A DNA stretch of 64,000 nucleotides. Source: an uncultured Gammaproteobacteria bacterium. GTDB taxonomy: Bacteria > Pseudomonadota > Gammaproteobacteria > JABDGN01. Positions 12,495 through 33,129 of the stretch are shown here, one piece after another. A program made the translations under genes and the position numbers. The notes below the pieces were generated by a model. It searched no databases. It worked only from the letters and a program-made list of their open reading frames with translations, and was not told the origin of the DNA. Each line of letters starts with the position of its first letter. The stretch's first letter is position 1. The DNA lies in NCBI GenBank assembly GCA_963975985.1, contig CAXBIY010000003.1:129539-193538 (forward strand), read 5' to 3'.

Positions 12495-13262
12495 TTAATA
12501 ATGCCCAAAGGTATAAGTAAAGCCGAATAACCAGACATTCGTGGCTAAATGCTGGCCAGGGCCCCTGCCCGTGCTACCGGATGCTGTTTCGGCAGAGCCT
12601 AAATAGGCATCACCTAAATCACTATATTCATAGCCAGTATAAAGTGTCATGAGAGGCGTTACGTGATAATCCAAACCTAAACCCACACGCCATGCAAAAT
12701 TAGCTGTCGTTTTATTAGCATAAACTAAACCTGGCTGCACAATGGGAGCCTTTGGCGTTGCGATATAACCGGAAGCCATGTTTTGACTAAAGCCTAAACC
12801 TGCTGAAATATAAGGCGCTAAACCATGCCATTCGACAATATCGGTTTTCACTGAAGCAAACAATTGCCAACTTTTAATATTGTACTGATAACTGTAATTA
12901 TTGAATTCAGGTAATTGAAATTCTAAGTAGTCATTGCCATTGACATTCGCGTTAGCTTGATTCGCAAAAGTAATGCCCAGGTTTATATAGGGGAACCAGA
13001 AATGTTTCATGCCAATTTGATAGCCTGCACTGAGTTCAGTCTCCAGCACGCCACTGCTAACATGAGCCGCACTGTAGTGATCGGTCTGAAAGCCCGGCAC
13101 AACATTGATATCACCCGCACCCGGCTGTGAGTAATACGCAACACCGACTCCCAGATCAAGATAAAAGCCCGATTGCGGATCAGTCGTGGCATCTGCTGTC
13201 ATAAAACCAATAAGTAACAGCACTAGTGTGCTAAAGCGGACAAGTAAACAACGTTTTTGCAT
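12495..13262 (-). CDS. Outer-membrane beta-barrel (porin-like) protein, paralog B
   Basis: Signal peptide; alternating Gly/Tyr-rich beta-strand pattern; C-terminal 'WLFGFTYTFGHY'; strongly similar to the 16214-17002 product; GGAGA RBS. Confidence 0.55.
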   Translation of the reverse strand: MQKRCLLVRFSTLVLLLIGFMTADATTDPQSGFYLDLGVGVAYYSQPGAGDINVVPGFQTDHYSAAHVSSGVLETELSAGYQIGMKHFWFPYINLGITFANQANANVNGNDYLEFQLPEFNNYSYQYNIKSWQLFASVKTDIVEWHGLAPYISAGLGFSQNMASGYIATPKAPIVQPGLVYANKTTANFAWRVGLGLDYHVTPLMTLYTGYEYSDLGDAYLGSAETASGSTGRGPGQHLATNVWLFGFTYTFGHY

Positions 13263-13350
13263 TAGTATGTCTCCAATACATCGAGCAGGCAATTAACGCG
13301 AACATACCATGGTTAGGCTTAAAAAACTACAGCCCGTACACTCGAGTACC

Positions 13351-13989
13351 TTATCCCAACAACTTTTGTGCAACTGTCAACCAAGCAGGAAAATCCACCG
13401 TGGGATGCCCTTTTCGACTGACAGGAATTGTTAATGGCACCAGCTCTTTCACAATGAATTGTCCTTGCAGCATGTCGGCAAGTTCTAAAAAACTTAGGCT
13501 GCCAGGAATTTTAACGCCAGTTTTGGCTTGCACTAATAAATCGGCATCGCGATCGCAGGTCATGTTAATCCATAAACCGTCATCGACGAGATGCTCATGA
13601 ATCAAACGGGCAAAATGTCGTCGCCCTTCTGCATTTTTAATGGTGTGTGCGCAAGCAATGTCATAGGCGATATCGTACTGCCCTAACTGCTGGTGTTGTT
13701 GCGTAAAGTTTAAGGTTTGAAAATTCACATCGGGGCCGTTAGTTTTCGCTGTGGCAATAGCTGTTGCTGATTCATCACAAGCTAAAATATTTTGGTAACC
13801 TTGTGTGGCCAATGCTTTTGCTTCTACGCCATAACCGCAACCGACTTCCAGTATCTTCGCATCTTTATCGACGATACGCTCGAACAACTGCAACACGGGT
13901 TGATGGGGCTCTGCATGTTTCCACGGTGTGTCGCCTTGCTGGTAATTGTCTTCCCAATCGCGGGTTTGGTTAATAGTTGTATTCATCAT
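13351..13989 (-). CDS. Class I SAM-dependent methyltransferase, TPMT/TehB-like
   Basis: 'W..NYQQGDTPW' TPMT-type N-terminus and 'ILEVGCGYGVEA' SAM motif I. Confidence 0.65.
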   Translation of the reverse strand: MMNTTINQTRDWEDNYQQGDTPWKHAEPHQPVLQLFERIVDKDAKILEVGCGYGVEAKALATQGYQNILACDESATAIATAKTNGPDVNFQTLNFTQQHQQLGQYDIAYDIACAHTIKNAEGRRHFARLIHEHLVDDGLWINMTCDRDADLLVQAKTGVKIPGSLSFLELADMLQGQFIVKELVPLTIPVSRKGHPTVDFPAWLTVAQKLLG

Positions 13990-13991
13990 AT

Positions 13992-16202
13992 TTAAGGTAA
14001 CTCTGAAATCGCTAAACCTTGTGTCGTGTAAATAGCATTTGTAGAAGCGCTACTATAAAGAAAACCATCGCTTGCCCATAGACCTGACGTCCTATTCCCA
14101 ATATTAGAATTACTGCCAGTGTAAACCAGCATTGAAGTAATTTTCCCATCACTGCCTAACGTGCAAACAGCAAATCCTACTTGACTAAATCCAACATACA
14201 AGTAGTCACCTGCTTGTGTCAAACTAGTTATCCCAACGTTATTATAAGGCAGAGCAAATGGTGTTTCAGAAGTAACCGTATCAGTATAAAACAACCATGT
14301 TGAATCAGGTAAATCATCGGCGCCCAAGTGTACCAGACCCAACCCTTTTTCAGTACCCACATACAAATAGTTGCCTATCCGAATCGCTCCATTAACATCA
14401 TAAGCGCTGACCGCTGATGGCCAACCAGTTGTTGTATTATCATATTTTGTCCAATCCTGAGTTACTGCACCCGTATCACTAATCGTGGCTGCATAAAAAC
14501 CCTTATCCCGTGTACCGACATACCACGCATTCCCGGTAATATAATTCACATAAGAATCAATCGAAGCATCAGCTGGAAAATTGAAATCACCGGTGGAGCC
14601 TGAGTTAGCATATAGATTCCAAGATGCATTAACCAAGCCTGTGCCTGAATCAACTGTGGCTGTATTAGCACCACCACCACCATTCCAGGCCTTAGTAATC
14701 GCGATATAATTATTATGTCGCACGACAGTGGTAACTTTCACACCGCTCAATATATTAAAACCACCCGTTGAAGTACCAGCACTATTTGTATATTTACTCC
14801 ACGTTGTTGGCACACCTTCAATCAACGACGTTGTATTAACACCAGCGTCATTTGCGACATATAAATGATCAGACTCATCAATGGTAACACCCTTCACAGA
14901 AGCTGAATTTAAATCACCACCAGTAGTGTCGTAAGTCGTCCAATCACTAGTGACTTCACTAGTTGTCGCATCAACCGGGGCAACAGCTAAACCTGAGTTA
15001 CTCGTTCCCACATACAAATAATCACCATGGCGAGCAACTGTAGTCACAGAAGTATTATTGTCACCTGGTAGCGGATGTGTTCCGTCACCATTTTCGTATA
15101 AGAATTTTTGCAAATCGCTATTAATCACATTAAACTCAGGTTCTACCGTAATAACATCGTTACCATCAACCTCCACACTTGCAGATACAGTTTGACTACC
15201 TGCCGTGCAATCACCTGATGTGCACTGAAACTGCAAACGCAAGTTACAAGTTGCCTCAGATGCCAAACTTCCTGAGGTTGAACAATCACCCGTTTCACCT
15301 GTTTGTTGCGATAACGCTGTCGCGGCAGAAACCGTATAACTCACCGCATCATCACTTGTATTCTGCATTTGATATAGCACTGTTACAGGTGCTGAATCAC
15401 CAGAAATTTGCTGAACGTGTGTCGCCCATCCACCACTCGGTGCCGTAGGTTCTATTGTTAAGGCCAATGGTGAGCTAGTATCAATAGCTTCCAAATCAAT
15501 ATTTTGTGAAAGCGCTTCATCACCGTCTTTCGTAACATCTAAACTCGTTGAAATGGCACCAACTTCAGTTGGTTGATACTGCAAGATTATCGTGCAAGCA
15601 CTACCCGCAGCTAATGAACCATCACAATCATTTTGCGAAATAGTCAAGCCATGTTCTTCACTGCTCAATGATGCTGAGACAATAGCCGCTGAGCCACCAT
15701 CATTGCTAACGGTATACGTAAATTCGTTATCCGTACCCACCTCTACGGTATCGGGCAAAGTTGGTGAGTCCAAAAAACTCAAAGCAGAAGGTGATTGCGA
15801 AAGTGTCATAGTCAGAGGAAATTGCTGCACTCTACCACTGTTACTGATATGCAAAATCTGACTCACGTTTCGTGCACTAGAAGACGTCACTGTATATTTG
15901 AGTATACACTCAGCACCTGCTGCTAATGTTGCTTGACAATTATTAACCACGTTGACATCACGCACCATAGGCGTTGAAAAACCGCTAATCTTAATAGGTG
16001 ATGTTGTAGGCAAATTATTGTGAACCAAATATTCAATGCTATATTCATTACCGACTGTACCGCTACAAGTTGCATTTGCACCACTGGTTGTGCAAGTTGT
16101 TGGTAGGCTTTGATACGTCACTTGCAGGGGCTCTTTCGCTGCAAAGGCGGATGTTGTGACAAACATGCTTAAGATAACCAAGCTATAAAATAAACGTTGC
16201 AT
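13992..16202 (-). CDS. Secreted multidomain protein: three Cys-pair Ig-like/beta-sandwich domains followed by a 7-bladed Reg_prop-like beta-propeller
   Basis: Signal peptide MQRLFYSLVILSMFVTTSAFA; three ~100-aa units with motif C...L.AG..C.(I/L).(Y/F); C-terminal half has 7 repeats of '(D/N)YLYVGT..GL.......W..Y(T/D)' like two-component-regulator propeller repeats; ATG at 16202 with AAGGAGA RBS. Confidence 0.55.
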   Translation of the reverse strand: MQRLFYSLVILSMFVTTSAFAAKEPLQVTYQSLPTTCTTSGANATCSGTVGNEYSIEYLVHNNLPTTSPIKISGFSTPMVRDVNVVNNCQATLAAGAECILKYTVTSSSARNVSQILHISNSGRVQQFPLTMTLSQSPSALSFLDSPTLPDTVEVGTDNEFTYTVSNDGGSAAIVSASLSSEEHGLTISQNDCDGSLAAGSACTIILQYQPTEVGAISTSLDVTKDGDEALSQNIDLEAIDTSSPLALTIEPTAPSGGWATHVQQISGDSAPVTVLYQMQNTSDDAVSYTVSAATALSQQTGETGDCSTSGSLASEATCNLRLQFQCTSGDCTAGSQTVSASVEVDGNDVITVEPEFNVINSDLQKFLYENGDGTHPLPGDNNTSVTTVARHGDYLYVGTSNSGLAVAPVDATTSEVTSDWTTYDTTGGDLNSASVKGVTIDESDHLYVANDAGVNTTSLIEGVPTTWSKYTNSAGTSTGGFNILSGVKVTTVVRHNNYIAITKAWNGGGGANTATVDSGTGLVNASWNLYANSGSTGDFNFPADASIDSYVNYITGNAWYVGTRDKGFYAATISDTGAVTQDWTKYDNTTTGWPSAVSAYDVNGAIRIGNYLYVGTEKGLGLVHLGADDLPDSTWLFYTDTVTSETPFALPYNNVGITSLTQAGDYLYVGFSQVGFAVCTLGSDGKITSMLVYTGSNSNIGNRTSGLWASDGFLYSSASTNAIYTTQGLAISELP

Positions 16203-16213
16203 CGACAATCTCC

Positions 16214-17002
16214 TTATTGACCGTGATTAAAATGTTCATGACCAAGCAAATAACTAAACCCAAACAACCATGTGTTAGTAGCTAAATTAGCTTGCCCAGG
16301 GCCTCTACCCGTTTGCCCACTATCAGTAGCGGCACTATCTAAGTAGGCATTACCCAAACCGGAATATTGATAACCAGCATAAACGGTAAACACTTTATTA
16401 ACATGATAATCTAGCCCCAGACCTAAGCGCCATGCAAAATTAGTCGTTGTGTTATTACCATAGGCTAAACCAGGTTGTACGACAGGTGCTTTAGGTGTTG
16501 AAGCATATCCATTAGCCGTGTTTTGATCAACACCTATACCTGCTTCAACATAAGGTGACAATCCATGCCAGTCAACAATATCGGCTTTCACATTCGCAAA
16601 TAATTGCCAAGTGCTTATGCTGTATTGATAACTGTAATTATTAAAATCTGATGATTGAAATTCAAGATAATCATGCCCTTTAACTGTGGCGCTCAATTGT
16701 TGTGAGTAAAGTAATCCAGCTTGAATCAGAGGAAACCAAAACCGTTTTGTGGCCATTTGATAGCCTGTACCCAGCTGATAATTAAATACACCATGGTTTA
16801 CTTTACCCGCACCAAATGCATCGGTTTCAAAATCTGGCACAACATCGACATTGCCTGCTGCCGGGTTCGCATAAAAAGCTTGGCCAGCACCAAAATCGAC
16901 ATAAATGCCTGATACGTTTTGCTGTGCGGCGTTGGCCATAGTTAATGATGATAATAAGCTGGTTAATAAAAATAAACGTGCAAAAAAATGACGCCCGTGC
17001 AT
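16214..17002 (-). CDS. Outer-membrane beta-barrel (porin-like) protein, paralog A
   Basis: Signal peptide MHGRHFFARLFLLTSLLSSLTMANA; long near-identical blocks with paralog B ('YLEFQ...FNNYSYQY...WQLFA.VK.DIV.WHGL.PY..AG.G..QN.A.GY..TPKAP.VQPGL.Y.N.TT.NFAWR.GLGLDYHV'); AGGAGA RBS. Confidence 0.55.
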   Translation of the reverse strand: MHGRHFFARLFLLTSLLSSLTMANAAQQNVSGIYVDFGAGQAFYANPAAGNVDVVPDFETDAFGAGKVNHGVFNYQLGTGYQMATKRFWFPLIQAGLLYSQQLSATVKGHDYLEFQSSDFNNYSYQYSISTWQLFANVKADIVDWHGLSPYVEAGIGVDQNTANGYASTPKAPVVQPGLAYGNNTTTNFAWRLGLGLDYHVNKVFTVYAGYQYSGLGNAYLDSAATDSGQTGRGPGQANLATNTWLFGFSYLLGHEHFNHGQ

Positions 17003-17069
17003 AGCATGTCTCCTTGAGGTTGAGCCGGCAGAAACATACCATGTTTGCACTTAAAAAACTATACGACAT

Positions 17070-17792
17070 TTACCCCAGCACTTCTGCGAATAGCTGTGCT
17101 GCGTAATTCCAAGTGCGTTCGCAAGCGACTTCGTTATAAACACGGCCCATTTCAGGTGCACCAATCAAAGCCGCATCAGGGTCGGTAAAGGCATGTTTTG
17201 TGTGACCAAAATATAGCATCTGCCAATCGACGTCGGCATCATTCATTTCTTTTTTAAAGTCCGCTAATTGTTCTGCCGATATTTGAGGATCATCATAACC
17301 ATGCAACGCCAACACTTTGGCTGTTATCGTTTCGTTAGGAATGTTTTCCGGTTTCATCAACACACCGTGCGCACTCACCATGGCTTTTATGTCGGCACCA
17401 CTGCGTGCCAAATCTAGACCGCACAAACCACCTAAGCAAAAACCGATAGCGGCCATTTTATTGGCATCAACCACATCTAGTTCACGCGCAGTTTCAAAAC
17501 CTAACATCGCTCGCGCTCTCGTTAACTCCCGATTCTCTAATAAGGGCATTAATGCCGCCATACATTCATCCATCGTGGTGCAATCTTTTCCCTCACCATA
17601 CATATCAACCACAAATGCGGCATAGCCTACTCGCACTAAACATTTAGCATTATCCATCGTCACACGATTCATGCCTTCCATCGCATGAAACAATAAGACG
17701 CAGGGCTGTTTACCATCAACAGCATCATCGTAGAATAATTGCCCAATATAATTCGTCTCACCATCAGAATATTTCACTTCTTGCTGCTGCAT
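17070..17792 (-). CDS. Dienelactone hydrolase family protein
   Basis: 'AIGFCLGG' G-x-C-x-G-G nucleophile motif and DLH-like length; start at MQQQEV (ATG 17792, GGAGG RBS). Confidence 0.65.
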   Translation of the reverse strand: MQQQEVKYSDGETNYIGQLFYDDAVDGKQPCVLLFHAMEGMNRVTMDNAKCLVRVGYAAFVVDMYGEGKDCTTMDECMAALMPLLENRELTRARAMLGFETARELDVVDANKMAAIGFCLGGLCGLDLARSGADIKAMVSAHGVLMKPENIPNETITAKVLALHGYDDPQISAEQLADFKKEMNDADVDWQMLYFGHTKHAFTDPDAALIGAPEMGRVYNEVACERTWNYAAQLFAEVLG

Positions 17793-17829
17793 GTTGCACC
17801 TCCTAGATAATGCGGTATAGTTCAAAGCT

Positions 17830-18861
17830 ATGAGAAAGATTAGCACAGTTATTTTATTAACGTTATCAATTATTGGGCATGCCAATAATTTACCCAACAT
17901 TAAACCTGCACCTTTACACCGAGGCGATGAAGTCGGATTAATCTCCAGCGGTTTTCGTGCCTCAAATATTGATATTACCTATGCTAAGCAACGTTTACAT
18001 GCTTTAGGATTGAAGGTTGTGCTGGGTGATAATATTCATAAACGTGCGGGCTATTTTGCCGGCACCGATTTAGAACGCGCGCATGATATTAATACAATGT
18101 TCGCTAATCCACGCATTAAAGCCATTTTTGAAATACGCGGTGGTTGGGGCAGCCAGCGTGTGCTGCCATTAATTGATTTTGATAATATTAAAAAACACCC
18201 CAAAATATTTGTTGGATTTAGTGATATTACGTCACTGTTACTCGCGATTCACGCCAAAACGGGGTTGATTACCTTTCATGGCCCAATGGGTATTGAACCT
18301 TGGCCGGCTTTTACTGTCGATAATCTAAAGCAAGTGTTGTTTGAAGGTAAAGCGCTTACGTTTAAAAATCCTAAGCCGAAAATAGACAAACAAGTTGATA
18401 ATATTAAAACCGATAGTTATGAAACGCATGTCGTACGATCAGGCACAGCTACTGGCAAATTGTTAGGTGGTAATCTAACGGTGTTAACCGCCCTGCTTTC
18501 AACACAATACCAGCCCGACTGGAAAGAAAGCATTTTATTCGTAGAAGATGTCGGCGTGAGTTATTACCAGATTGATCGCATGTTAGCGCAACTACAATCA
18601 GCCGGTGTGTTAAAACAAATTAAAGGGTTTGTGTTTGGTGAATGCACGGGCTGTCATAAAGCCAATGCGGATGGCTATGATTTGCAGCAAGTGTTAGATG
18701 AGTATATTAAACCACTGCATATTCCCGCTTATTCTGGCGCGACGTTTGGGCATGAGCCGATGAACTTTACGTTGCCTGAGGGAACTAAAGTGAAGCTTAA
18801 TGCAGGTGAGCGGACGATAAAGATGCTGGCGCCAGCTGTTTTATCGCCAGCCTCCTCCTAA
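17830..18861 (+). CDS. ldcA: LD-carboxypeptidase (peptidase S66, LdcA-like), with signal peptide
   Basis: 'VGFSDITSLL' Ser-nucleophile motif; S66 length. Confidence 0.7.
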   Translation: MRKISTVILLTLSIIGHANNLPNIKPAPLHRGDEVGLISSGFRASNIDITYAKQRLHALGLKVVLGDNIHKRAGYFAGTDLERAHDINTMFANPRIKAIFEIRGGWGSQRVLPLIDFDNIKKHPKIFVGFSDITSLLLAIHAKTGLITFHGPMGIEPWPAFTVDNLKQVLFEGKALTFKNPKPKIDKQVDNIKTDSYETHVVRSGTATGKLLGGNLTVLTALLSTQYQPDWKESILFVEDVGVSYYQIDRMLAQLQSAGVLKQIKGFVFGECTGCHKANADGYDLQQVLDEYIKPLHIPAYSGATFGHEPMNFTLPEGTKVKLNAGERTIKMLAPAVLSPASS

Positions 18862-18862
18862 G

Positions 18863-18973
18863 TAGGGTGGATAAAAGTTCGTGCGGCAGCACGGACATAT
18901 CCACCATTCAAACGTTGACTTAACACCGCTGGTGGATATGTCCGGCTTTCAGCCGAACTTTTACCCACCCTAC
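18863..18973. repeat. MITE-like palindromic element (copy 2, complete)
   Basis: 111 bp; TIRs GTAGGGTGGATAAAAGTTCG / CGAACTTTTACCCACCCTAC; internal IR GGACATATCCACCA...GCTGGTGGATATGTCC; sits exactly between convergent ldcA and ABC-F stops. Confidence 0.7.
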
Positions 18974-20742: not shown

Positions 20743-21198
20743 TTGCAAATGAATACAAAGCTGATCAAATCACTGCTTTTCATGACTTCTTTAAGCTTCT
20801 TTCAAGGTGTGGCACATGCAGCACCCGATCTACAACACTACTGCCCTAGCCCTTATGGCTTAACATTTAAATCAACTAAGCAGGATATGGGTAAGGTTGA
20901 TGGCATGGGTGAAACGGCAGCTAAAAATGTACATTTTGAGAACCCGTACATGCGTTCTAAACAACACGATCCTGCTTACGTGCCAGCACCGACATTAGAT
21001 GAGCATGGTTATTTTGAGGAAAGCAAAATAGATGCTGGGCGTACAGCATATTACAACGATGGTAGCTTAACTTGTTATTATCTCTACCCAATCGCCGCTG
21101 ATCGCAGCACGATGGAGCGTTTAATCTTGATATCCGATCATCATGCTTTCCAGCAATGCGAAAATGGTCAAGTCATCGTTCGCACCGAAAATTGTTAA
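20743..21198 (+). CDS. Secreted hypothetical protein
   Basis: Signal peptide ...FFQGVAHA|AP; Cys-containing 151-aa product with no family motif. Confidence 0.4.
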   Translation: MQMNTKLIKSLLFMTSLSFFQGVAHAAPDLQHYCPSPYGLTFKSTKQDMGKVDGMGETAAKNVHFENPYMRSKQHDPAYVPAPTLDEHGYFEESKIDAGRTAYYNDGSLTCYYLYPIAADRSTMERLILISDHHAFQQCENGQVIVRTENC

Positions 21199-22474: not shown

Positions 22475-22607
22475 GCCCTCTTTACACGCATTTTACATTC
22501 TATAATCATTCAACTAACATTATTTCGGTTAATATAGCGCCAAATTATTGACTACAACAGTGGTTATTGGATAATGCCACTAGTCAAATCAATGAGAGGA
22601 AGCCTTT

Positions 22608-23474
22608 ATGTCAATCGTGAGAATTGTAATAGCGTTTTTTGCACTATTAAGCTTAACTGCCTGTGTACATCATTTATCAGAATCAGAATGTTTACACACT
22701 AACTGGCAAACTGTCGGTGAGCAAGATGGCACGCAAGGTAAACCCAAGAAAGATTTCTCCGGCTACATTGCTGATTGCGCAAAATACAATTTGACGATTA
22801 ACACACAATCTTATAATCAAGGTTATGCACAGGGTATCAAAGAATACTGTACCCCAACACAGGCATTAGGTTTGCAAGCCGGTCAAGGTGGCGCTCCCGT
22901 TGCCGAGATTCAAGCACGTGAAACAGCTTGTGCTGCCGTACATTTATCACTTAGCTTAAAAGATTTTGATATCGGTTATAACAAAGGCATCACGCAATAT
23001 TGCACTAAAGCTCAAGGGCAGCAAGATGCTATTGCCGGCAAAATCGCCAGCCTTGCTTGTGCAACTAAACATATAACGGCTTATACAGACGGATATAATG
23101 CCGGTGCAGCTCAAGCTTGTAGCAATGTATCAACCGCAACTGAATTAGGTAAAGCCGGCAACGCCTACCCTAATGAATGTGATGTGAGCAAATTTCCACT
23201 ATTTAAAAAAGCTTATGACCACGGCGTTGTCTTGAAGCAAAACATTGATAACATCCAAAATCAATTGGATCAAGTTAACTCTGGCGTTAGCAACATGGAA
23301 AATCAATATCACTTCACACTTTCTCCCAATGGTGGCGTCAATTATGACTCTGGAAAATATCCTTCTGGCGAGACGACAGGAAGCATGCTCAGTTTGATGG
23401 CACAATACCAAGACCTACGTACCCAACAAACTGCTTTACAAAATAAACTTAAAGTAGCGCAAGCTGCGACTTAA
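22608..23474 (+). CDS. Lipoprotein with three internal 'GY..G...YC' repeats (DUF2799-like N-terminus)
   Basis: Lipobox LSLTAC; 'C...NW...G..DG..G' motif followed by three ~50-aa Cys-containing repeats; predicted TTGACT-N16-GATAAT promoter upstream. Confidence 0.45.
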   Translation: MSIVRIVIAFFALLSLTACVHHLSESECLHTNWQTVGEQDGTQGKPKKDFSGYIADCAKYNLTINTQSYNQGYAQGIKEYCTPTQALGLQAGQGGAPVAEIQARETACAAVHLSLSLKDFDIGYNKGITQYCTKAQGQQDAIAGKIASLACATKHITAYTDGYNAGAAQACSNVSTATELGKAGNAYPNECDVSKFPLFKKAYDHGVVLKQNIDNIQNQLDQVNSGVSNMENQYHFTLSPNGGVNYDSGKYPSGETTGSMLSLMAQYQDLRTQQTALQNKLKVAQAAT

Positions 23475-23490
23475 ACTAGGAGAGTTAAAC

Positions 23491-24531
23491 ATGAAAAAAC
23501 TCACAAGTATTTTAATTTTATGTGCCAGCTTAATCATGCTGCCATTTGTCAGCAATGCCGCCCCTCAACCCGTCACGGGCGATACGGGGATGCCAACAAT
23601 TGCGGTCTTGAACTTCACTATCACACATCAAGTAATGCAGATGTATTATCAAAATGTAGAATACAAGGACATGCATGGAAAAAAGAAGCATGGCCAACAC
23701 GGTACTCGTTACAATGAAAGCAACACGGCTAAATACAAACAAGAGTATGATGAAGCTACTAGCTCGATGACTAACAGCATCACGAACTATTTAGTGCAAA
23801 GCCATAAATTCAATGTGGTCGAGCGCAATAAAGTTCAACAAGTGGCTGACGAATTAAATTTTAACGACTCGCAATATGTGTCACCACAAAATGCCGTTAA
23901 AATTGGTCACATGCTTGGCGCTGATTATTTAGTGATGGGTAGCATCGAAAACATTGATGTGCGCCATGAGAAAGACAGCAACCCTTACATGCAAGATGGT
24001 GAGTTAATGTACCACGGTGCGTTAGCCATCAATGTGCAAGTTGTCGATACTAAGAGCGGACAAATCGTTGCTTCATATCCTGTTCAAGTGCAAAAGAAAC
24101 TGTATCCACACAGCGATAAGATTATGAATAAGTCATTGTTCTTGAATCAGCTAAAAGATAAAGCAGCACAACAAGCCACTAACGATATATTACAAGCCAT
24201 CTTCCCGCTGCAAATTATGCAAGTGCAGGGTAAGCAAGTATTTATCAATCGCGGCACAGGTGCTGACTTTAAAGTTGGCAGCATCATGACGGTTTATAAA
24301 ACGGGCAAAGCCTTAGTTGACCCTGACACAGGCAATAGCCTTGGTGTCACTAAAAGCAAAATTGGCACAGTGAAAATCACACAAATCCAAACTAAATATT
24401 CTACCGCTTCAATTTTGACGGGCGATGCAACGCAGATGCAAGGTGCAGTGGTTGAGTTAACGGATAAAAACCCTGATACCAATAAACAACCCATGTCACC
24501 AGGCTCTAGCCCTAAACCGATTCAATGGTAA
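23491..24531 (+). CDS. CsgG/LpoB-fold family lipoprotein with extra C-terminal beta-rich domain
   Basis: 'KFNVVERNKVQQVADELNF...IGHMLGADYLVMGSIENI' matches the CsgG-family core; signal peptide. Confidence 0.5.
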   Translation: MKKLTSILILCASLIMLPFVSNAAPQPVTGDTGMPTIAVLNFTITHQVMQMYYQNVEYKDMHGKKKHGQHGTRYNESNTAKYKQEYDEATSSMTNSITNYLVQSHKFNVVERNKVQQVADELNFNDSQYVSPQNAVKIGHMLGADYLVMGSIENIDVRHEKDSNPYMQDGELMYHGALAINVQVVDTKSGQIVASYPVQVQKKLYPHSDKIMNKSLFLNQLKDKAAQQATNDILQAIFPLQIMQVQGKQVFINRGTGADFKVGSIMTVYKTGKALVDPDTGNSLGVTKSKIGTVKITQIQTKYSTASILTGDATQMQGAVVELTDKNPDTNKQPMSPGSSPKPIQW

Positions 24532-24534
24532 TCC

Positions 24535-25938
24535 ATGTTGAAACAGTTATCGCTTAATCTATTGTCCATCCTGCTAGTGTCTTTACTAGCAGGTTGTTCG
24601 ATGTCGAGCACCTTTAATGCTTACCCCAATCAAGCAAAACCCATGCGCGCGGATATTGCGAAAGGCAAGTTCCAAGATGCGGCTGATCGGGTTAAATCTA
24701 AAACTGATACGAATGATAAAATCTTATACCTAATGGAATACGGTCGGATTGAACAACTTGCAGGCAATTTCACGCAAAGCCGCGACATCTACACGCAAGC
24801 CATTGCTAATGTCGATGCGCTGCAACAAAAAGCTAAAATTACTGCAACAGGTATGTTTGACCAAAGCGCTGCCCTGCTAGTCAACGACAATGCTATTCCT
24901 TACCAGGGCTACCCTTATGAATATATTTTACTACATCAATACCAAGCGCTGAACTATGTTGCTTTAGGTGATGTGTCTGGTGCATTAGTTGAAGTGCGCC
25001 GTGCTGATGAAGAGCAAAGCTATACGCAGCAGCTGAATCAAAAGACCTTAGCCGCAGCTGACGCAAAAGCCAAAAAAGAATCCATTAACAACAACGTTGA
25101 CTTCAACCAAAAACAATTCCAACAAATGAATGCTGCAGCCGCTGCTGTTAAAAATCAATATTTAGATGCTTACAGTTATTATTTTGGTGGCCTGATGTTT
25201 GAAGCAACAGGCAGTAGTAATAATGCTTATGTCGCGTACAAACAAGCCTTGTCGATTTCACCTAGCAACCCTTATCTGCAACAAAATGTTTTACGCTTGG
25301 GCAAACAATTAAGCATGCCGGATTTTACGCGTTACCAAAAAACTTATCCGCAAACGATTATTAACCCTAAACCGAACCAAGGTAAAATTGCCATCATTTT
25401 TGAGCAAGGCTTTATTCCGTTGCGTAAAGCATTCAATTTACCACTACCCATTAATGGTTCTGGCATTGTGCCCATATCCATGCCCTACTATGCTGACCGA
25501 CACTTCCCAACACCTGCATTGCTAGTGAGCCAAGGTAAAGAGACGCTTGGCAAAACATCGGCTATTTTGAATTTACAAAACTTATCGGCCCGAGCCTTGA
25601 AAGATGAGTATCCGGTATTGGTCGTGCGAGCTATTTTACGCTTTGCCGCCAAAGCCACCATGGAACACTCCGCACAAAAGAATGCCGGCGATGTAGGCGG
25701 CATTGTTGCCAACCTTTACACTGTTTTTAGTAGTGGTGCGGATTTGAGAACTTGGTCTACCCTGCCTAATGATGTACAAATCATGCAAGCTTACGTAAAT
25801 GCAGGTGAACAATCGCTCACTTTGTCATATAATGGCAAGCGACAGACCATGCCCGTTAAAGTCACTAAAGGCCAAACGGTGCTAGTTTGGGTGGTGGCTT
25901 ATCCAACCCGTTTGGCAACCAATGTTTTTCCACTATAA
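24535..25938 (+). CDS. Lipoprotein, TPR-like helical (uncharacterised, CsgG-associated type)
   Basis: Lipobox LLAGC; helical repeats; 4-nt gap from the upstream gene. Confidence 0.4.
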   Translation: MLKQLSLNLLSILLVSLLAGCSMSSTFNAYPNQAKPMRADIAKGKFQDAADRVKSKTDTNDKILYLMEYGRIEQLAGNFTQSRDIYTQAIANVDALQQKAKITATGMFDQSAALLVNDNAIPYQGYPYEYILLHQYQALNYVALGDVSGALVEVRRADEEQSYTQQLNQKTLAAADAKAKKESINNNVDFNQKQFQQMNAAAAAVKNQYLDAYSYYFGGLMFEATGSSNNAYVAYKQALSISPSNPYLQQNVLRLGKQLSMPDFTRYQKTYPQTIINPKPNQGKIAIIFEQGFIPLRKAFNLPLPINGSGIVPISMPYYADRHFPTPALLVSQGKETLGKTSAILNLQNLSARALKDEYPVLVVRAILRFAAKATMEHSAQKNAGDVGGIVANLYTVFSSGADLRTWSTLPNDVQIMQAYVNAGEQSLTLSYNGKRQTMPVKVTKGQTVLVWVVAYPTRLATNVFPL

Positions 25939-25947
25939 GGACTGATA

Positions 25948-26337
25948 ATGAAACTGAAATCACTATTATTAACTCTCATGACTATCATACTCGGCAGCTT
26001 TCTGTTGAGCAGCTGTGGTTGTAGCTATTCAGAAGCCAGCATGCCATTAGGGCAAACCGTTGCAAAAATCAATGAAAAAGCTGACTTCACTACCATTACC
26101 GAATTGCGTAGCCGTGAAATTGGCAATGTCCTCAACGCCAGTGCTAGCATCAAAAGCAACAGCGTCGACAACAAAATGCTAAGTTACCGCTTCACATGGT
26201 TCGACAAAGATGGCTTCCAAGTTGGTACACCCGGCCCCTGGACACCGATTTCACTCACCGCTGGTTCTAACACGCAAGTACAAGGTACTGCACCTAACCC
26301 CAGCGCCAAAACTTTTAAACTTAATGTTTGTGCATAG
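25948..26337 (+). CDS. ycfL: YcfL-like lipoprotein (DUF1425)
   Basis: Lipobox LLSSCG; 'YRFTWFDKDGFQV' matches the E. coli YcfL 'YRFYWYDAQG' core; lies directly upstream of lpoB as in E. coli. Confidence 0.6.
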   Translation: MKLKSLLLTLMTIILGSFLLSSCGCSYSEASMPLGQTVAKINEKADFTTITELRSREIGNVLNASASIKSNSVDNKMLSYRFTWFDKDGFQVGTPGPWTPISLTAGSNTQVQGTAPNPSAKTFKLNVCA

Positions 26338-26348
26338 GAGACAACACA

Positions 26349-26927
26349 ATGAAAATCTTTAAAACCCTAACCGCTATCGTGTTTGCTAGTAGCTTGCTTG
26401 TCGCTTGCTCTGGTGGCGTACAATACACAGATCCCGGCGCAGTAGACACAACAGGCTTAGGCTTTGGCTCTACTGACTTACAAACAACCGTGCAAACAAT
26501 GGTGTCAGGTTTATTAACCTTCCCACCGGTTGTGCAGTTAACCAGTAAAGAGCGTCCCATATTATTTGTTGCCGGTGTTAAAAACACGACTAACCAACAA
26601 ATCAATACCGATATGATTAACAACATGATGATGACGCAATTGATTCAATCAGGTAAATTCCGCTTCACCGATATGTCTGTAGTGAAAAAAATGCGTGATC
26701 AGTTAAACTATCAGAGCGACAGCGGTAATGTTGATCCACAAAGTGTTATTAAAATCGGCCAACAAGTCGGTGCTCAATACATGCTATACGGTAGCGTAAG
26801 TGCAATTGAAAAATCTGGCGATGGCAAAACATCCATGTACTTCCTAGTCAGCATGCGTTTAATGAATATTAAAACGGGTATTGTTGAATGGGCGGATCAA
26901 AAACAGATTCGTAAAGTTCAAAGTTAG
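26349..26927 (+). CDS. lpoB: Penicillin-binding protein activator LpoB (copy 1)
   Basis: Lipobox LVACSG; 'SGKFRFTDMSVVKKMRDQLNYQSDSGNVDPQSVIKIGQQVGAQYMLYGSVSA' parallels E. coli LpoB 'NGKFTLVSAQQLSMAKQQLGLSPQDSLGTRSKAIGIARNVGAHYVLYSSASG'. Confidence 0.7.
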   Translation: MKIFKTLTAIVFASSLLVACSGGVQYTDPGAVDTTGLGFGSTDLQTTVQTMVSGLLTFPPVVQLTSKERPILFVAGVKNTTNQQINTDMINNMMMTQLIQSGKFRFTDMSVVKKMRDQLNYQSDSGNVDPQSVIKIGQQVGAQYMLYGSVSAIEKSGDGKTSMYFLVSMRLMNIKTGIVEWADQKQIRKVQS

Positions 26928-26972
26928 TATTAATTCCTTCTCCGTTTGCCGAAGAAGGAATATAATTGAAAT

Positions 26973-27082
26973 GTAGGGTGGATAAAAATTCGTGCGAAGC
27001 ACTGAACTATCCACCAGCGGTCTATCATCAAGCACTGCTGGTGGATATGTCCGGCTTTCAGCCGAACTTTTATCCACCCTAC
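26973..27082. repeat. MITE-like palindromic element (copy 3) between the two lpoB paralogs
   Basis: 110 bp with both TIRs intact; it creates a spurious in-frame N-terminal extension of the next ORF. Confidence 0.7.
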
Positions 27083-27115
27083 TTAGTTGTGAGCATTAAT
27101 TCTAGAGGTTCGATC

Positions 27116-27712
27116 ATGAAATCATTAAAACTATTACTCATCATCCTAACAAGCGCTATCCTAATCAGTGCGTGCTCCAGCAACACCCGCTATACTGACC
27201 CTGGTGCAGTCGATACCACCAGTACTGACTTCAGCTCAACTGACTTACAAACCACCACGAAGAAAATGGTGTCAGGTTTATTAACCTTCCCACCCATTGT
27301 GAAACTCACAGCAAAAGAGCGCCCAATTCTATTTGTCGACCAAATCCAAAACAACACTGATGAACACATTGACACCAATAACTTAAGTAATATGGTGATG
27401 ACCGAACTCACACAGTCTGGCAAATTTCGCTTCGTTGATATGTCGCAAGTAAAAGCGGTACACAACCAACTGAGCTATCAACGTGACAGTGGTTTAGTCG
27501 ATCAAAAAACAGCCATAAAAGTCGGCCACCAACTCGGCGCACAGTTCATGCTATACGGTAGCATCAGCAACATCGTGCAGCGTAACAGCTCACAAAAATC
27601 CGTTTACTTTTTAATTACTATGAAACTATTGAACCTGCAGACCGGCATCGTCGAATGGGCCGATCAAAAGCAGATTCGGAAAGTGCAGAAGCGGGCTACA
27701 TTTGGCTGGTAA
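27116..27712 (+). CDS. lpoB: Penicillin-binding protein activator LpoB (copy 2, tandem paralog)
   Basis: Lipobox LISACSS; collinear with copy 1 along its whole length; AGAGG RBS at the true start 27116. Confidence 0.7.
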   Translation: MKSLKLLLIILTSAILISACSSNTRYTDPGAVDTTSTDFSSTDLQTTTKKMVSGLLTFPPIVKLTAKERPILFVDQIQNNTDEHIDTNNLSNMVMTELTQSGKFRFVDMSQVKAVHNQLSYQRDSGLVDQKTAIKVGHQLGAQFMLYGSISNIVQRNSSQKSVYFLITMKLLNLQTGIVEWADQKQIRKVQKRATFGW

Positions 27713-32993: not shown

Positions 32994-33020
32994 TGTTTCT
33001 TCTCAGTTCCCGATGCTGAT

Positions 33021-33129
33021 GTAGGGTGGATAAAAGATTCACATCGCGAATCATATCTACCACTCAGCCTATATCCAACACCGCTGGTGGATATGTCCGC
33101 GCTGCCGCGTGAACTTTTATCCACCCTAC
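33021..33129. repeat. MITE-like palindromic element (copy 4)
   Basis: 109 bp with TIRs GTAGGGTGGATAAAAG / CTTTTATCCACCCTAC; between recQ and the MFS gene. Confidence 0.7.

Follow-up and report, generated by a model that had tools for sequence, protein, structure and literature searches.

A cluster of six genes predicted to encode cell-envelope proteins, among them a tandem pair from the LpoB family, lies in a 64,000-nucleotide stretch of contig CAXBIY010000003.1 from an uncultured gammaproteobacterium (assembly GCA_963975985.1); this whole stretch is hereafter called the window, and positions are numbered from its first nucleotide. The six open reading frames (ORFs) span 22608–27712, are co-directional on the + strand and follow one another head to tail, with spacers of 16, 3, 9 and 11 nucleotides between the first five genes and 188 nucleotides before the last. 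Their products, P1 to P6, are listed in Table 1, and the two LpoB-family members, P5 and P6, are referred to as LpoB-1 and LpoB-2. Profile matches in Pfam and NCBIfam bear out, at the family level, the gene identities that an initial annotation of this DNA had proposed. Going by sequence, the best explanation of the arrangement is that the six genes constitute one operon, and that this operon is a complete form of a widespread envelope module.

Table 1. Genes and other sequence features of the locus, in window coordinates.
Feature	Coordinates	Strand	Description
P1	22608..23474	+	288 aa; three Cys-containing DUF2799 stretches; lipobox LTAC; coiled-coil-like C-terminus
P2	23491..24531	+	346 aa; predicted FlgT-like Sec-secreted periplasmic protein; Pfam CsgG 59 bits, LpoB 48 bits
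P3	24535..25938	+	467 aa; COG3014-family TPR-like lipoprotein; lipobox LAGC
P4	25948..26337	+	129 aa; YcfL/DUF1425 lipoprotein; lipobox LSSC
P5 (LpoB-1)	26349..26927	+	192 aa; derived LpoB-family lipoprotein, without C-terminal tail; lipobox LVAC
P6 (LpoB-2)	27116..27712	+	198 aa; canonical module-type LpoB-family lipoprotein; lipobox ISAC
Sigma-70-like promoter candidate	22548..22575	+	TTGACT-16-GATAAT, 10/12 positions, 5' of the P1 gene
Short hairpin	26933..26961	+	12-nt arms, directly after the LpoB-1 stop codon
Imperfect palindrome (REP/MITE-like)	26973..27082	.	110 nt, between the two lpoB-family genes

Lipoboxes had initially been assigned to all six products. Five of these assignments stand, for P1 and for P3 to P6, each with a canonical lipobox (Table 1), while P2 carries a signal of the signal-peptidase-I type. 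The cleavage contexts of LpoB-1 and LpoB-2 read LVAC/SG and ISAC/SS, respectively, with no Asp at position +2. Translation of these two genes most likely begins at internal ATGs, at 26349 and 27116, because these starts give good lipoprotein signals and agree with database gene calls of 192 and 198 residues.

Recurrence of the module and its constituent proteins

An alignment of P3 relatives served as the query in a survey of COG3014 genes that took a single genome for each GTDB species, and at least 504 matches were confirmed by tblastn; 80 loci with 10-kb flanks were retained and examined by tblastn of the six window proteins and by clustering of all locus ORFs. The COG3014 gene is followed by a single LpoB-family gene in 76 of the 80 loci, and a DUF1425 gene lies between the two in 38, being absent from the Shewanella loci. 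A P2 homologue accompanies the module in 24 loci, placed 5' of COG3014 in Piscirickettsia, Ectothiorhodospiraceae and some Moraxellaceae metagenome-assembled genomes (MAGs); in Geobacter and Desulfuromonadales it separates COG3014 from ycfL. The taxa represented are Gammaproteobacteria, Desulfuromonadales/Geobacter, Omnitrophota and one Brocadia MAG, and the COG3014-carrying loci include those of free-living marine and sediment bacteria. No other neighbour family recurred across taxa in the 80 loci; genes for penicillin-binding proteins (PBPs), thiK and nagZ were likewise not among the recurrent neighbours. Within Shewanella and Geobacter, the recurrent neighbours comprise aminopeptidase N, peptide deformylase, FKBP, SlyX, a WD40 protein and Lcl_C, which we set aside as functional clues, as they reflect lineage synteny only and are housekeeping or unrelated genes.

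Homology and gene order together define a core module of FlgT-like P2, COG3014 protein P3, YcfL protein P4 and module-type LpoB-family protein P6; on the same comparisons, P1 and P5 are two clade-specific additions. The module recurs across phyla, and the idea that the cluster arose by joining of unrelated neighbourhoods does not hold. The initial annotation had taken the CsgG-like and tetratricopeptide repeat (TPR)-like genes for a local departure from the E. coli pattern, a view that has to be reversed: their presence is the widespread state and E. coli has the reduced one. Its suggestion that these two genes act in one envelope complex is plausible, given their joint occurrence with YcfL and LpoB across many phyla.

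The relation to E. coli is bridged by Motilimonas pumila. E. coli K-12 has the order hinT-ycfL-lpoB-thiK-nagZ-ycfP-ndh, which confirms the initially noted ycfL–lpoB synteny, and Motilimonas has the order HIT(hinT)-[472 aa]-DUF1425-LpoB-UPF0227(ycfP)-Pyr_redox_2 (ndh-like), in which the 472-residue protein is a COG3014 homologue of P3 (33% identity, E 1e-73). Because the hinT and ycfP-ndh flanks of Motilimonas bracket COG3014-ycfL-lpoB, conserved gene order identifies the E. coli ycfL–lpoB pair as the same locus without COG3014, that is, as the positional orthologue of the module minus this gene.

Two lineage-specific arrangements were also observed. In a Fangia hongkongensis-like locus of Francisellaceae type (locus L087, 4127–9127), no DUF1425 gene is called and the module is rearranged to MlaA-LpoB-(alcohol dehydrogenase)-P2-like-COG3014; that mlaA, a gene for the maintenance of outer-membrane lipid asymmetry, lies next to it may be coincidence. 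In approximately 20 Geobacter/Desulfuromonadales loci, an Lcl_C (DUF1566) protein is encoded directly 3' of the LpoB-family gene (for example, L046 13518–14129); this protein may be an additional component of the module that is specific to the lineage.

P3 matched no Pfam or NCBIfam family above threshold. It aligned with a Shewanella 'COG3014 family protein' at 37% identity over 93% of its length (E 1e-86), its nearest named relative is from Piscirickettsia (40% identity), and the G20-C21 pair is invariant in the family alignment. The P3 structural model is of high confidence (predicted local distance difference test (pLDDT) 89, predicted TM-score (pTM) 0.89) and consists of an N-terminal TPR-like superhelix (residues ~30–270) and a C-terminal beta-rich domain of 11 strands with a long helix of 53 residues. 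PDB fold and profile searches with P3 returned generic TPR proteins only; no counterpart, porins included, was found for the C-terminal domain. P4 scored 73.8 bits against Pfam PF07233 (DUF1425; cut-off 28.3) and shares 23% identity with YcfL of E. coli (E 3e-5); a solved relative, 3o0l, is uncharacterised. An identical public contig (L001/L086 3557–3853) carries the YcfL homologue as a 98-residue call without signal peptide and lipobox. This call is probably a start-codon error, as the 129-residue reading from the upstream ATG restores both features. Our literature search for COG3014 and YcfL/DUF1425 turned up no functional study.

P2 scored 59 bits against Pfam PF03783 CsgG (cut-off 20.8) over residues 78–235 and fell below threshold for FlgT_M; some of its homologues carry PF16538 FlgT_C. 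Its N-terminus is a signal-peptidase-I type signal (…VSNA/AP), and the alignment of its relatives shows an AxA-type site followed by the mature N-terminus 'A-x-PTIAVLDF' with no Cys. The Cys inside the hydrophobic core of the P2 signal is not conserved. A lipobox is absent in 22 of the 24 P2 homologues from genome loci, the exceptions being two Piscirickettsia salmonis loci, and also from most aligned database homologues. P2 is predicted from these features to be a Sec-secreted periplasmic protein and not a lipoprotein.

The AlphaFold model of P2, of moderate confidence (pLDDT 74), has an alpha/beta domain with long hairpins (residues 36–237), a beta domain (240–323) and a disordered end (326–346), which the model would assign as a TolB-N/CsgG/LpoB-fold domain, an FlgT_C-like beta domain and a disordered tail. 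The best Foldseek matches in the PDB are FlgT (3w1e, E 1.4e-14) and the FlgT chain of the LPHT ring (8z5n, E 4.9e-14); the P2–FlgT alignment covers about 310 columns at 15% sequence identity and a low TM-score of 0.35. The CsgG structure (4uv2) follows behind FlgT at an E of about 1e-6, and the lower-ranked matches are CsgG, TolB-N, LptE, GNA1162 and LpoB. The initial designation of P2 as a CsgG-fold lipoprotein is therefore amended on two counts, P2 having no lipobox and matching FlgT better than CsgG in structure. A 'TPGSS[DE]KPxxW' motif at the C-terminus is conserved in the P2 family from gammaproteobacteria to Desulfuromonadales, and the tail of P2 itself reads PGSSPKPIQW. Residues 49–75 of P2 (window 23635–23715) form a Lys/His/Tyr-rich insertion of ~27 residues that is absent in all aligned homologues and is predicted to be disordered (pLDDT < 50).

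P1 scored 111 bits against Pfam PF10973 (DUF2799) over its three stretches and a weak 38.9 bits against PRK11443 (cut-off 124), which suggests a distant relative of YfiL/PRK11443. One of the genomes of the same clade described below (L085) has a P1 homologue (34% identity) in the same position, and neither tblastn nor phmmer found DUF2799 within 10 kb of the module in the 80 more distant loci. With 0 of 80 loci carrying one inside this distance, DUF2799 was rejected as a general member of the module, and the distribution of P1 is that of a clade-specific addition.

The tandem LpoB-family pair and its surroundings

LpoB-1 and LpoB-2 align without gaps across 176 residues at 63% identity, and their genes are 67% identical. 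Nonsynonymous divergence (dN) is 0.27, synonymous divergence (dS) is saturated, and dN/dS is well below 1; on these values the duplication is old, with both copies constrained. A search of 5.8 billion proteins returned LpoB-2 as the closest relative of LpoB-1. Each of the 76 loci that gave an LpoB-family hit has a single orthologue that matches LpoB-2 better than LpoB-1. The tandem pair is present in three genomes of the window's clade, namely the window itself, a JGI/NCBI contig (L083) with the order …COG3014-DUF1425-LpoB-LpoB and a Logan contig (L085) with the order DUF2799-COG3014-DUF1425-LpoB-LpoB, and in 0 of the 80 surveyed loci; relative to P3, the COG3014 fragment of L083 is 49% identical and the COG3014 protein of L085 is 40% identical. 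The initial annotation was thus right to call the tandem duplication unusual. By these comparisons, the duplication is old, asymmetric and kept in three divergent genomes. An apparent second case, of two paralogues in Shewanella, was rejected, the 'pairs' being one gene with alternative start codons.

The asymmetry concerns two features. The upstream copies stop just past a QKQIRK motif in all three genomes, ending in VQS, VNNS and TQK, while the downstream copies retain a 9-residue tail (KRATFGW, TRATFGW and KRALLGL). A tail ending in [FL]G[LMWF] is found in 75 of the 76 COG3014-linked LpoB-family genes, and the lone exception looks frameshifted. It is also found in 109 of the 120 best database hits, among which the short-tailed sequences are only the three upstream copies. 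This C-terminal motif of the family, '[KR][RS]xx[FL]G[LMWF]', recurs across phyla. The upstream copies have, moreover, lost the His of a family loop, NxTxEHI[DN], which reads NTTNQQIN, NETSQQIN and NQTNESIN in the three genomes; in the window, the LpoB-1 loop NTTNQQIN stands against NNTDEHID in LpoB-2. As an observation on the two protein families, the C-terminal motifs of P2 and LpoB relatives are unrelated to each other, each follows a flexible segment, and each has the look of a docking peptide.

Linker, tail and loop His were tallied over 138 representatives of the family, obtained by clustering at 50% identity. Of these, 81 carry the tail and 92 the His, and the spacing between the lipidated Cys and the domain is mostly short, most commonly 22 residues. 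Representatives with a linker of at least 42 residues, E. coli LpoB included, always lack both tail and His. On these sequence features the family divides into two types: a module type, with a short segment, the EH loop, the tail and linkage to COG3014, and an E. coli type, with a long linker, no tail and no His, at whose E. coli locus COG3014 is absent. The hallmarks of the module type are a short conserved N-terminal segment, the NxTxEHI[DN] loop, the QKQIRK motif and the 9-residue tail; P6 carries all four, and P5 is without the loop His and the tail. Judged against the features that separate the types, LpoB-1 has lost two of three and has gained no linker.

Neighbour-joining trees gave deep nodes with 4–38% bootstrap support, and the within-genome pairs tend to group (67–83% for L083). 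We favour a single duplication event over three parallel ones, because the losses of tail and loop His are shared by the upstream copies; under both histories the asymmetric pair has been maintained.

Both copies belong to the family that takes its name from LpoB. They scored 147.8 (P5) and 160.3 bits (P6) against PF13036 (cut-off 22.3), and 185.5 and 204.2 bits against TIGR02722 'LpoB' (cut-off 110.55), for which E. coli LpoB itself scores 218 bits. Identity to E. coli LpoB is 25–28% and is confined to the globular domain. The Cys-to-domain spacing is ~22 residues in P5 and P6 versus 58 in E. coli LpoB, whose linker comprises 57 Pro-rich residues; that of the window copies is ~20 residues, contains a conserved 'YTDPGAVDTT' and is not Pro-rich. 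In E. coli this linker is described as a disordered 145 Å stretch that lets LpoB reach the UB2H domain of PBP1b (PMC6220978). The PBP1b interface of LpoB is made up of loop 1 (110–117), S157, A164, Y178, S180 and E201, and the E201R substitution abolishes PBP1b binding and complementation (PMC12279963). The family NxTxEHI[DN] loop aligns with loop 1, one of the regions in contact with PBP1b (PMC12279963). The initial annotation had asked whether LpoB-2 lacks the residues of the PBP1b-binding face, and the answer is divided. The E201 position is Ile in both copies, and hydrophobic in 27 of 27 aligned relatives; S157 is changed to Gly, D156 to Ser and R111 to Thr/Asn, D106 is Ala in LpoB-1, and the rest of loop 1 differs. 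N110, T112, Y178 and S180 are kept in both copies and A164 in LpoB-2 only, LpoB-1 having Val.

The cluster is preceded by a same-strand major facilitator superfamily (MFS) transporter gene and followed by a convergent gene for a LysR-family regulator; the window genes nearest to it encode MFS transporters, the LysR-family regulator and a mechanosensitive-channel protein. Promoter and terminator scans returned no more sites than in shuffled sequence, and the sigma-70-like site of Table 1 is a candidate only. An Rfam scan of the whole window gave zero matches. The 110-nucleotide palindrome, which resembles repetitive extragenic palindromes (REPs) or miniature inverted-repeat transposable elements (MITEs), occupies most of the 188-nucleotide spacer between the two lpoB-family genes. 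Further full copies lie at ~18862–18973 and ~33020–33129 and a partial one at 6517–6536; the ends of this family are conserved (GTAGGGTGGATAAAA…TTTTATCCACCCTAC), and its arms have 6 matches in the window versus 0 expected by chance. The symmetry of the palindrome accounts for a spurious N-terminal ORF extension of LpoB-2 and for an antisense ORF at 26859–27077.

Elsewhere in the window, upstream of the MFS gene that precedes the cluster, a 151-residue ORF at 20743–21198 has a signal peptide (…GVAHA/AP), several Cys and no Pfam match. A 738-residue ORF at 13992–16208 (− strand), within a − strand gene run at ~12495–17900, has an ASH (Ig-like) domain as its sole Pfam match.

A proposed scaffold and the alternatives

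A model for the locus emerges in which the module would form an outer-membrane scaffold at the peptidoglycan layer, joined by a subfunctionalised LpoB paralogue. Its structural and evolutionary part, a conserved module and a retained, asymmetric duplication, we hold with high confidence on the sequence comparisons above; the part that concerns peptidoglycan regulation is drawn by analogy and is tentative; and the two combined make a reading that we favour, though only slightly. The lipoproteins would mostly be anchored in the outer membrane, position +2 being Ser, Gly or Val and never Asp, by a sorting rule that is E. coli's and may not hold in the window's organism. TPR domains commonly bind terminal peptides. 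P3 would scaffold P2 and P6 by way of their conserved extreme C-terminal motifs, with YcfL as a further subunit; we propose this docking because flexible stretches lead into the conserved ends of P2 and P6, and the protein conserved alongside these two is of the TPR type. The assembled complex would regulate peptidoglycan enzymes at the interface of peptidoglycan and outer membrane, a role suggested because the sole biochemical activity known in the LpoB family is activation of a class A PBP, and because the one interaction reported for a COG3014 homologue is with peptidoglycan hydrolases. P3 may also supply the reach that E. coli LpoB gets from its linker. LpoB-1, having no tail, would be released from the scaffold, either to a separate or modified partner or to modulate or compete with P6.

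Several points weigh against this model. The docking of tails on the TPR protein is drawn from conservation and co-occurrence, and the association of tail with loop His (78 family members with both, 27 with neither) is uncorrected for phylogeny. The function is extrapolated from distant relatives, namely E. coli LpoB at 25–28% identity and the epsilonproteobacterial proteins Cj0089 and HP0018, which are connected to P3 by the literature. Two reports on Campylobacter jejuni, the fractionation of Cj0089 with the inner membrane and the adhesin role of Cj0091, fit a simple outer-membrane scaffold poorly (PMC3100323). On the evolutionary side, the neighbour-joining trees do not separate one duplication with gene conversion from three duplications.

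A different reading makes both copies PBP1b activators of the E. coli type that dock on UB2H, each with its own PBP1b-type synthase or one of them a decoy, with the other four genes mere neighbours. We consider it unlikely. The initial proposal of two cognate PBPs or a decoy presumes the E. coli mechanism, for which both the long linker and E201 are absent in both copies: the lipid anchor lies ~22 residues from the domain as against 58, E201 is replaced by Ile, and D156, S157 and, in LpoB-1, D106 are replaced as well. Scores above the curated cut-off of the NCBI 'equivalog' model TIGR02722, positional orthology to E. coli ycfL–lpoB and conservation of N110, T112, A164 (Val in LpoB-1) and Y178 do speak for such activators, as does V. 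cholerae, where lpoB is genetically tied to PBP1b through synthetic lethality with mrcA and lpoA (PMC4063736); a PBP partner may have co-evolved with copies lacking E201. However, at the cut-offs of Typas et al. LpoB and UB2H are confined to enterobacteria (PMC3060616), and the module extends to Geobacter, Omnitrophota and Brocadia as well as, going by published work, to Campylobacter and Helicobacter. No PBP was found among the window ORFs of at least 600 residues (64 kb only), nor a PBP gene adjoining the module in the 80 loci, and the four partner genes are conserved alongside, hence not mere neighbours.

Three further readings depart from regulation of peptidoglycan or from the significance of the pair. 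The module could be an outer-membrane export or ring device like CsgG or PelC–PelB, in which LpoB/CsgG-fold rings and a TPR partner pass a polymer or protein; PelC and PelB are an analogue of such a ring with its TPR partner. In its favour, P2 scores above the Pfam threshold for CsgG, resembles the ring-forming proteins FlgT and CsgG in structure and is encoded adjacent to a TPR protein. Against it, P2 carries no lipid anchor and is closer to FlgT than to CsgG, the conserved neighbours of the module include no gene for a substrate, a polymerase or a glycosyltransferase and none like csgE/F, and the module encodes no beta-barrel porin, there being no porin match for the C-terminal domain of P3; we regard export as very unlikely. 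Less probable still is that the products are surface-exposed adhesins or antigens, duplicated for antigenic or adhesive variety. The Cj0091 mutant does show defects in adherence and early colonisation, but the same study did not show Cj0091 to be surface-exposed (PMC3100323). Moreover, the module is carried by free-living marine and sediment bacteria, and dN/dS well below 1 and the strong conservation of the family, QKQIRK motif and tail included, are unlike diversifying antigens. Barely credible, finally, is a duplication without functional meaning, with LpoB-1 a decaying duplicate heading for loss: LpoB-1 evolves faster, scores below LpoB-2 against every orthologue and has lost conserved features, but its frame, lipobox and core motifs are intact, it remains 63% identical to LpoB-2 with no indels despite saturated synonymous sites, and a tail-less copy is kept in two more genomes whose COG3014 proteins are only 40–49% identical to P3.

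A bolder evolutionary scenario, which we think unlikely as stated, would have the LpoB family begin not with PBP1b activation but as a subunit docked by its tail in an ancient outer-membrane module of COG3014, FlgT-like and YcfL proteins. The LpoB of enterobacteria would be an exaptation, in which COG3014, tail and loop His were lost and a long linker was acquired, and LpoB-1 an independent, partial replay of this release. If this is true, LpoB-1 is a paralogue intermediate between a module-bound and a free activator form, and the comparison of LpoB-1 with LpoB-2 in one cell shows the evolution of an outer-membrane regulator of cell-wall synthesis. LpoB is a textbook case of the outer membrane controlling cell-wall synthesis. 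The gene families, and an operon of the cj0089 type, were already known; what appears to be new from these sequence comparisons, in that we found no paper describing it, is the ycfL–lpoB pair as a module remnant, the split between module-type and E. coli-type proteins, and the pairing of a tail-less with a tailed copy. The ycfL–lpoB pair appears to be the remnant of a larger, phylum-spanning module whose other parts are COG3014, the FlgT-like protein and YcfL, and automatic labels of 'penicillin-binding protein activator LpoB' include proteins without the E. coli linker and the binding-critical residue. The window offers a natural paralogue pair that differs in the features separating module-type from E. 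coli-type LpoB, and the tail, the loop His and the loss of COG3014 are handles on module function and on the recruitment of LpoB.

Comparison with known systems

The E. coli locus resembles the window in having YcfL/DUF1425 followed by an LpoB-family lipoprotein of the same Pfam and NCBIfam family, and the globular domains of P5 and P6 are homologous to that of E. coli LpoB (E 3e-9 to 4e-12). It differs in lacking the COG3014 and FlgT-like genes, and, unlike LpoB-2, E. coli LpoB has neither the C-terminal tail nor EH in loop 1.

FlgT of the Vibrio H/T-ring is the best structural match to P2, and both are Sec-secreted periplasmic proteins rather than lipoproteins, P2 by prediction; unlike FlgT, P2 has its own conserved C-terminal PGSSxKPxxW motif, and no flagellar genes were found among the scanned window ORFs or conserved flanks. 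With CsgG, P2 shares a score above the Pfam threshold and the fold (4uv2), yet it has no lipobox and bears an extra C-terminal beta domain; the curli partners csgE, csgF, csgA and csgB were found neither among the window neighbours nor among the recurrent locus families. The PBP1a activator LpoA and the hydrolase scaffold NlpI are like P3 by analogy only, as TPR-like outer-membrane lipoproteins (PMC8536351, PMC7049810), and P3 has no sequence or specific structural similarity to them beyond the generic TPR.

Similar in architecture are operons of epsilonproteobacteria. H. pylori HP0018 is a homologue of Cj0089; its deletion produces chains of outer-membrane vesicles and less helical cells, and it co-precipitates with AmiA and MltD (PMC11394524). 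In enterohepatic Helicobacter, the HP0018 homologue lies upstream of a homologue of HP1457, termed an LpoB homologue (PMC11394524). The protein Cj0091, which carries the old COG3417 'SpaP' domain label, is found in the outer membrane, and its mutants adhere less to INT 407 cells and are slower in early chick colonisation, while Cj0089 fractionated with the inner membrane (PMC3100323). The functional reports in epsilonproteobacteria diverge, with adhesion for Cj0091 and vesiculation, cell shape and AmiA/MltD association for HP0018. The FlgT-like gene, the DUF2799 gene and the second LpoB of the window are not reported for the epsilonproteobacterial operon. The link of P3 and P4 to Cj0089/HP0018 and Cj0090, which we draw from the literature and from matching operon architecture, is nonetheless suggested on two grounds: the Shewanella TPR proteins to which Cj0089 was reported to match by BLAST (PMC3100323) are here the COG3014 proteins adjoining an LpoB-family gene, and the order and sizes of cj0089-cj0090-cj0091, which encode lipoproteins of 453, 122 and 207 residues (PMC3100323), match those of the window, with a TPR lipoprotein of ~450 residues, a small one of ~120 and an LpoB-family member of ~200.

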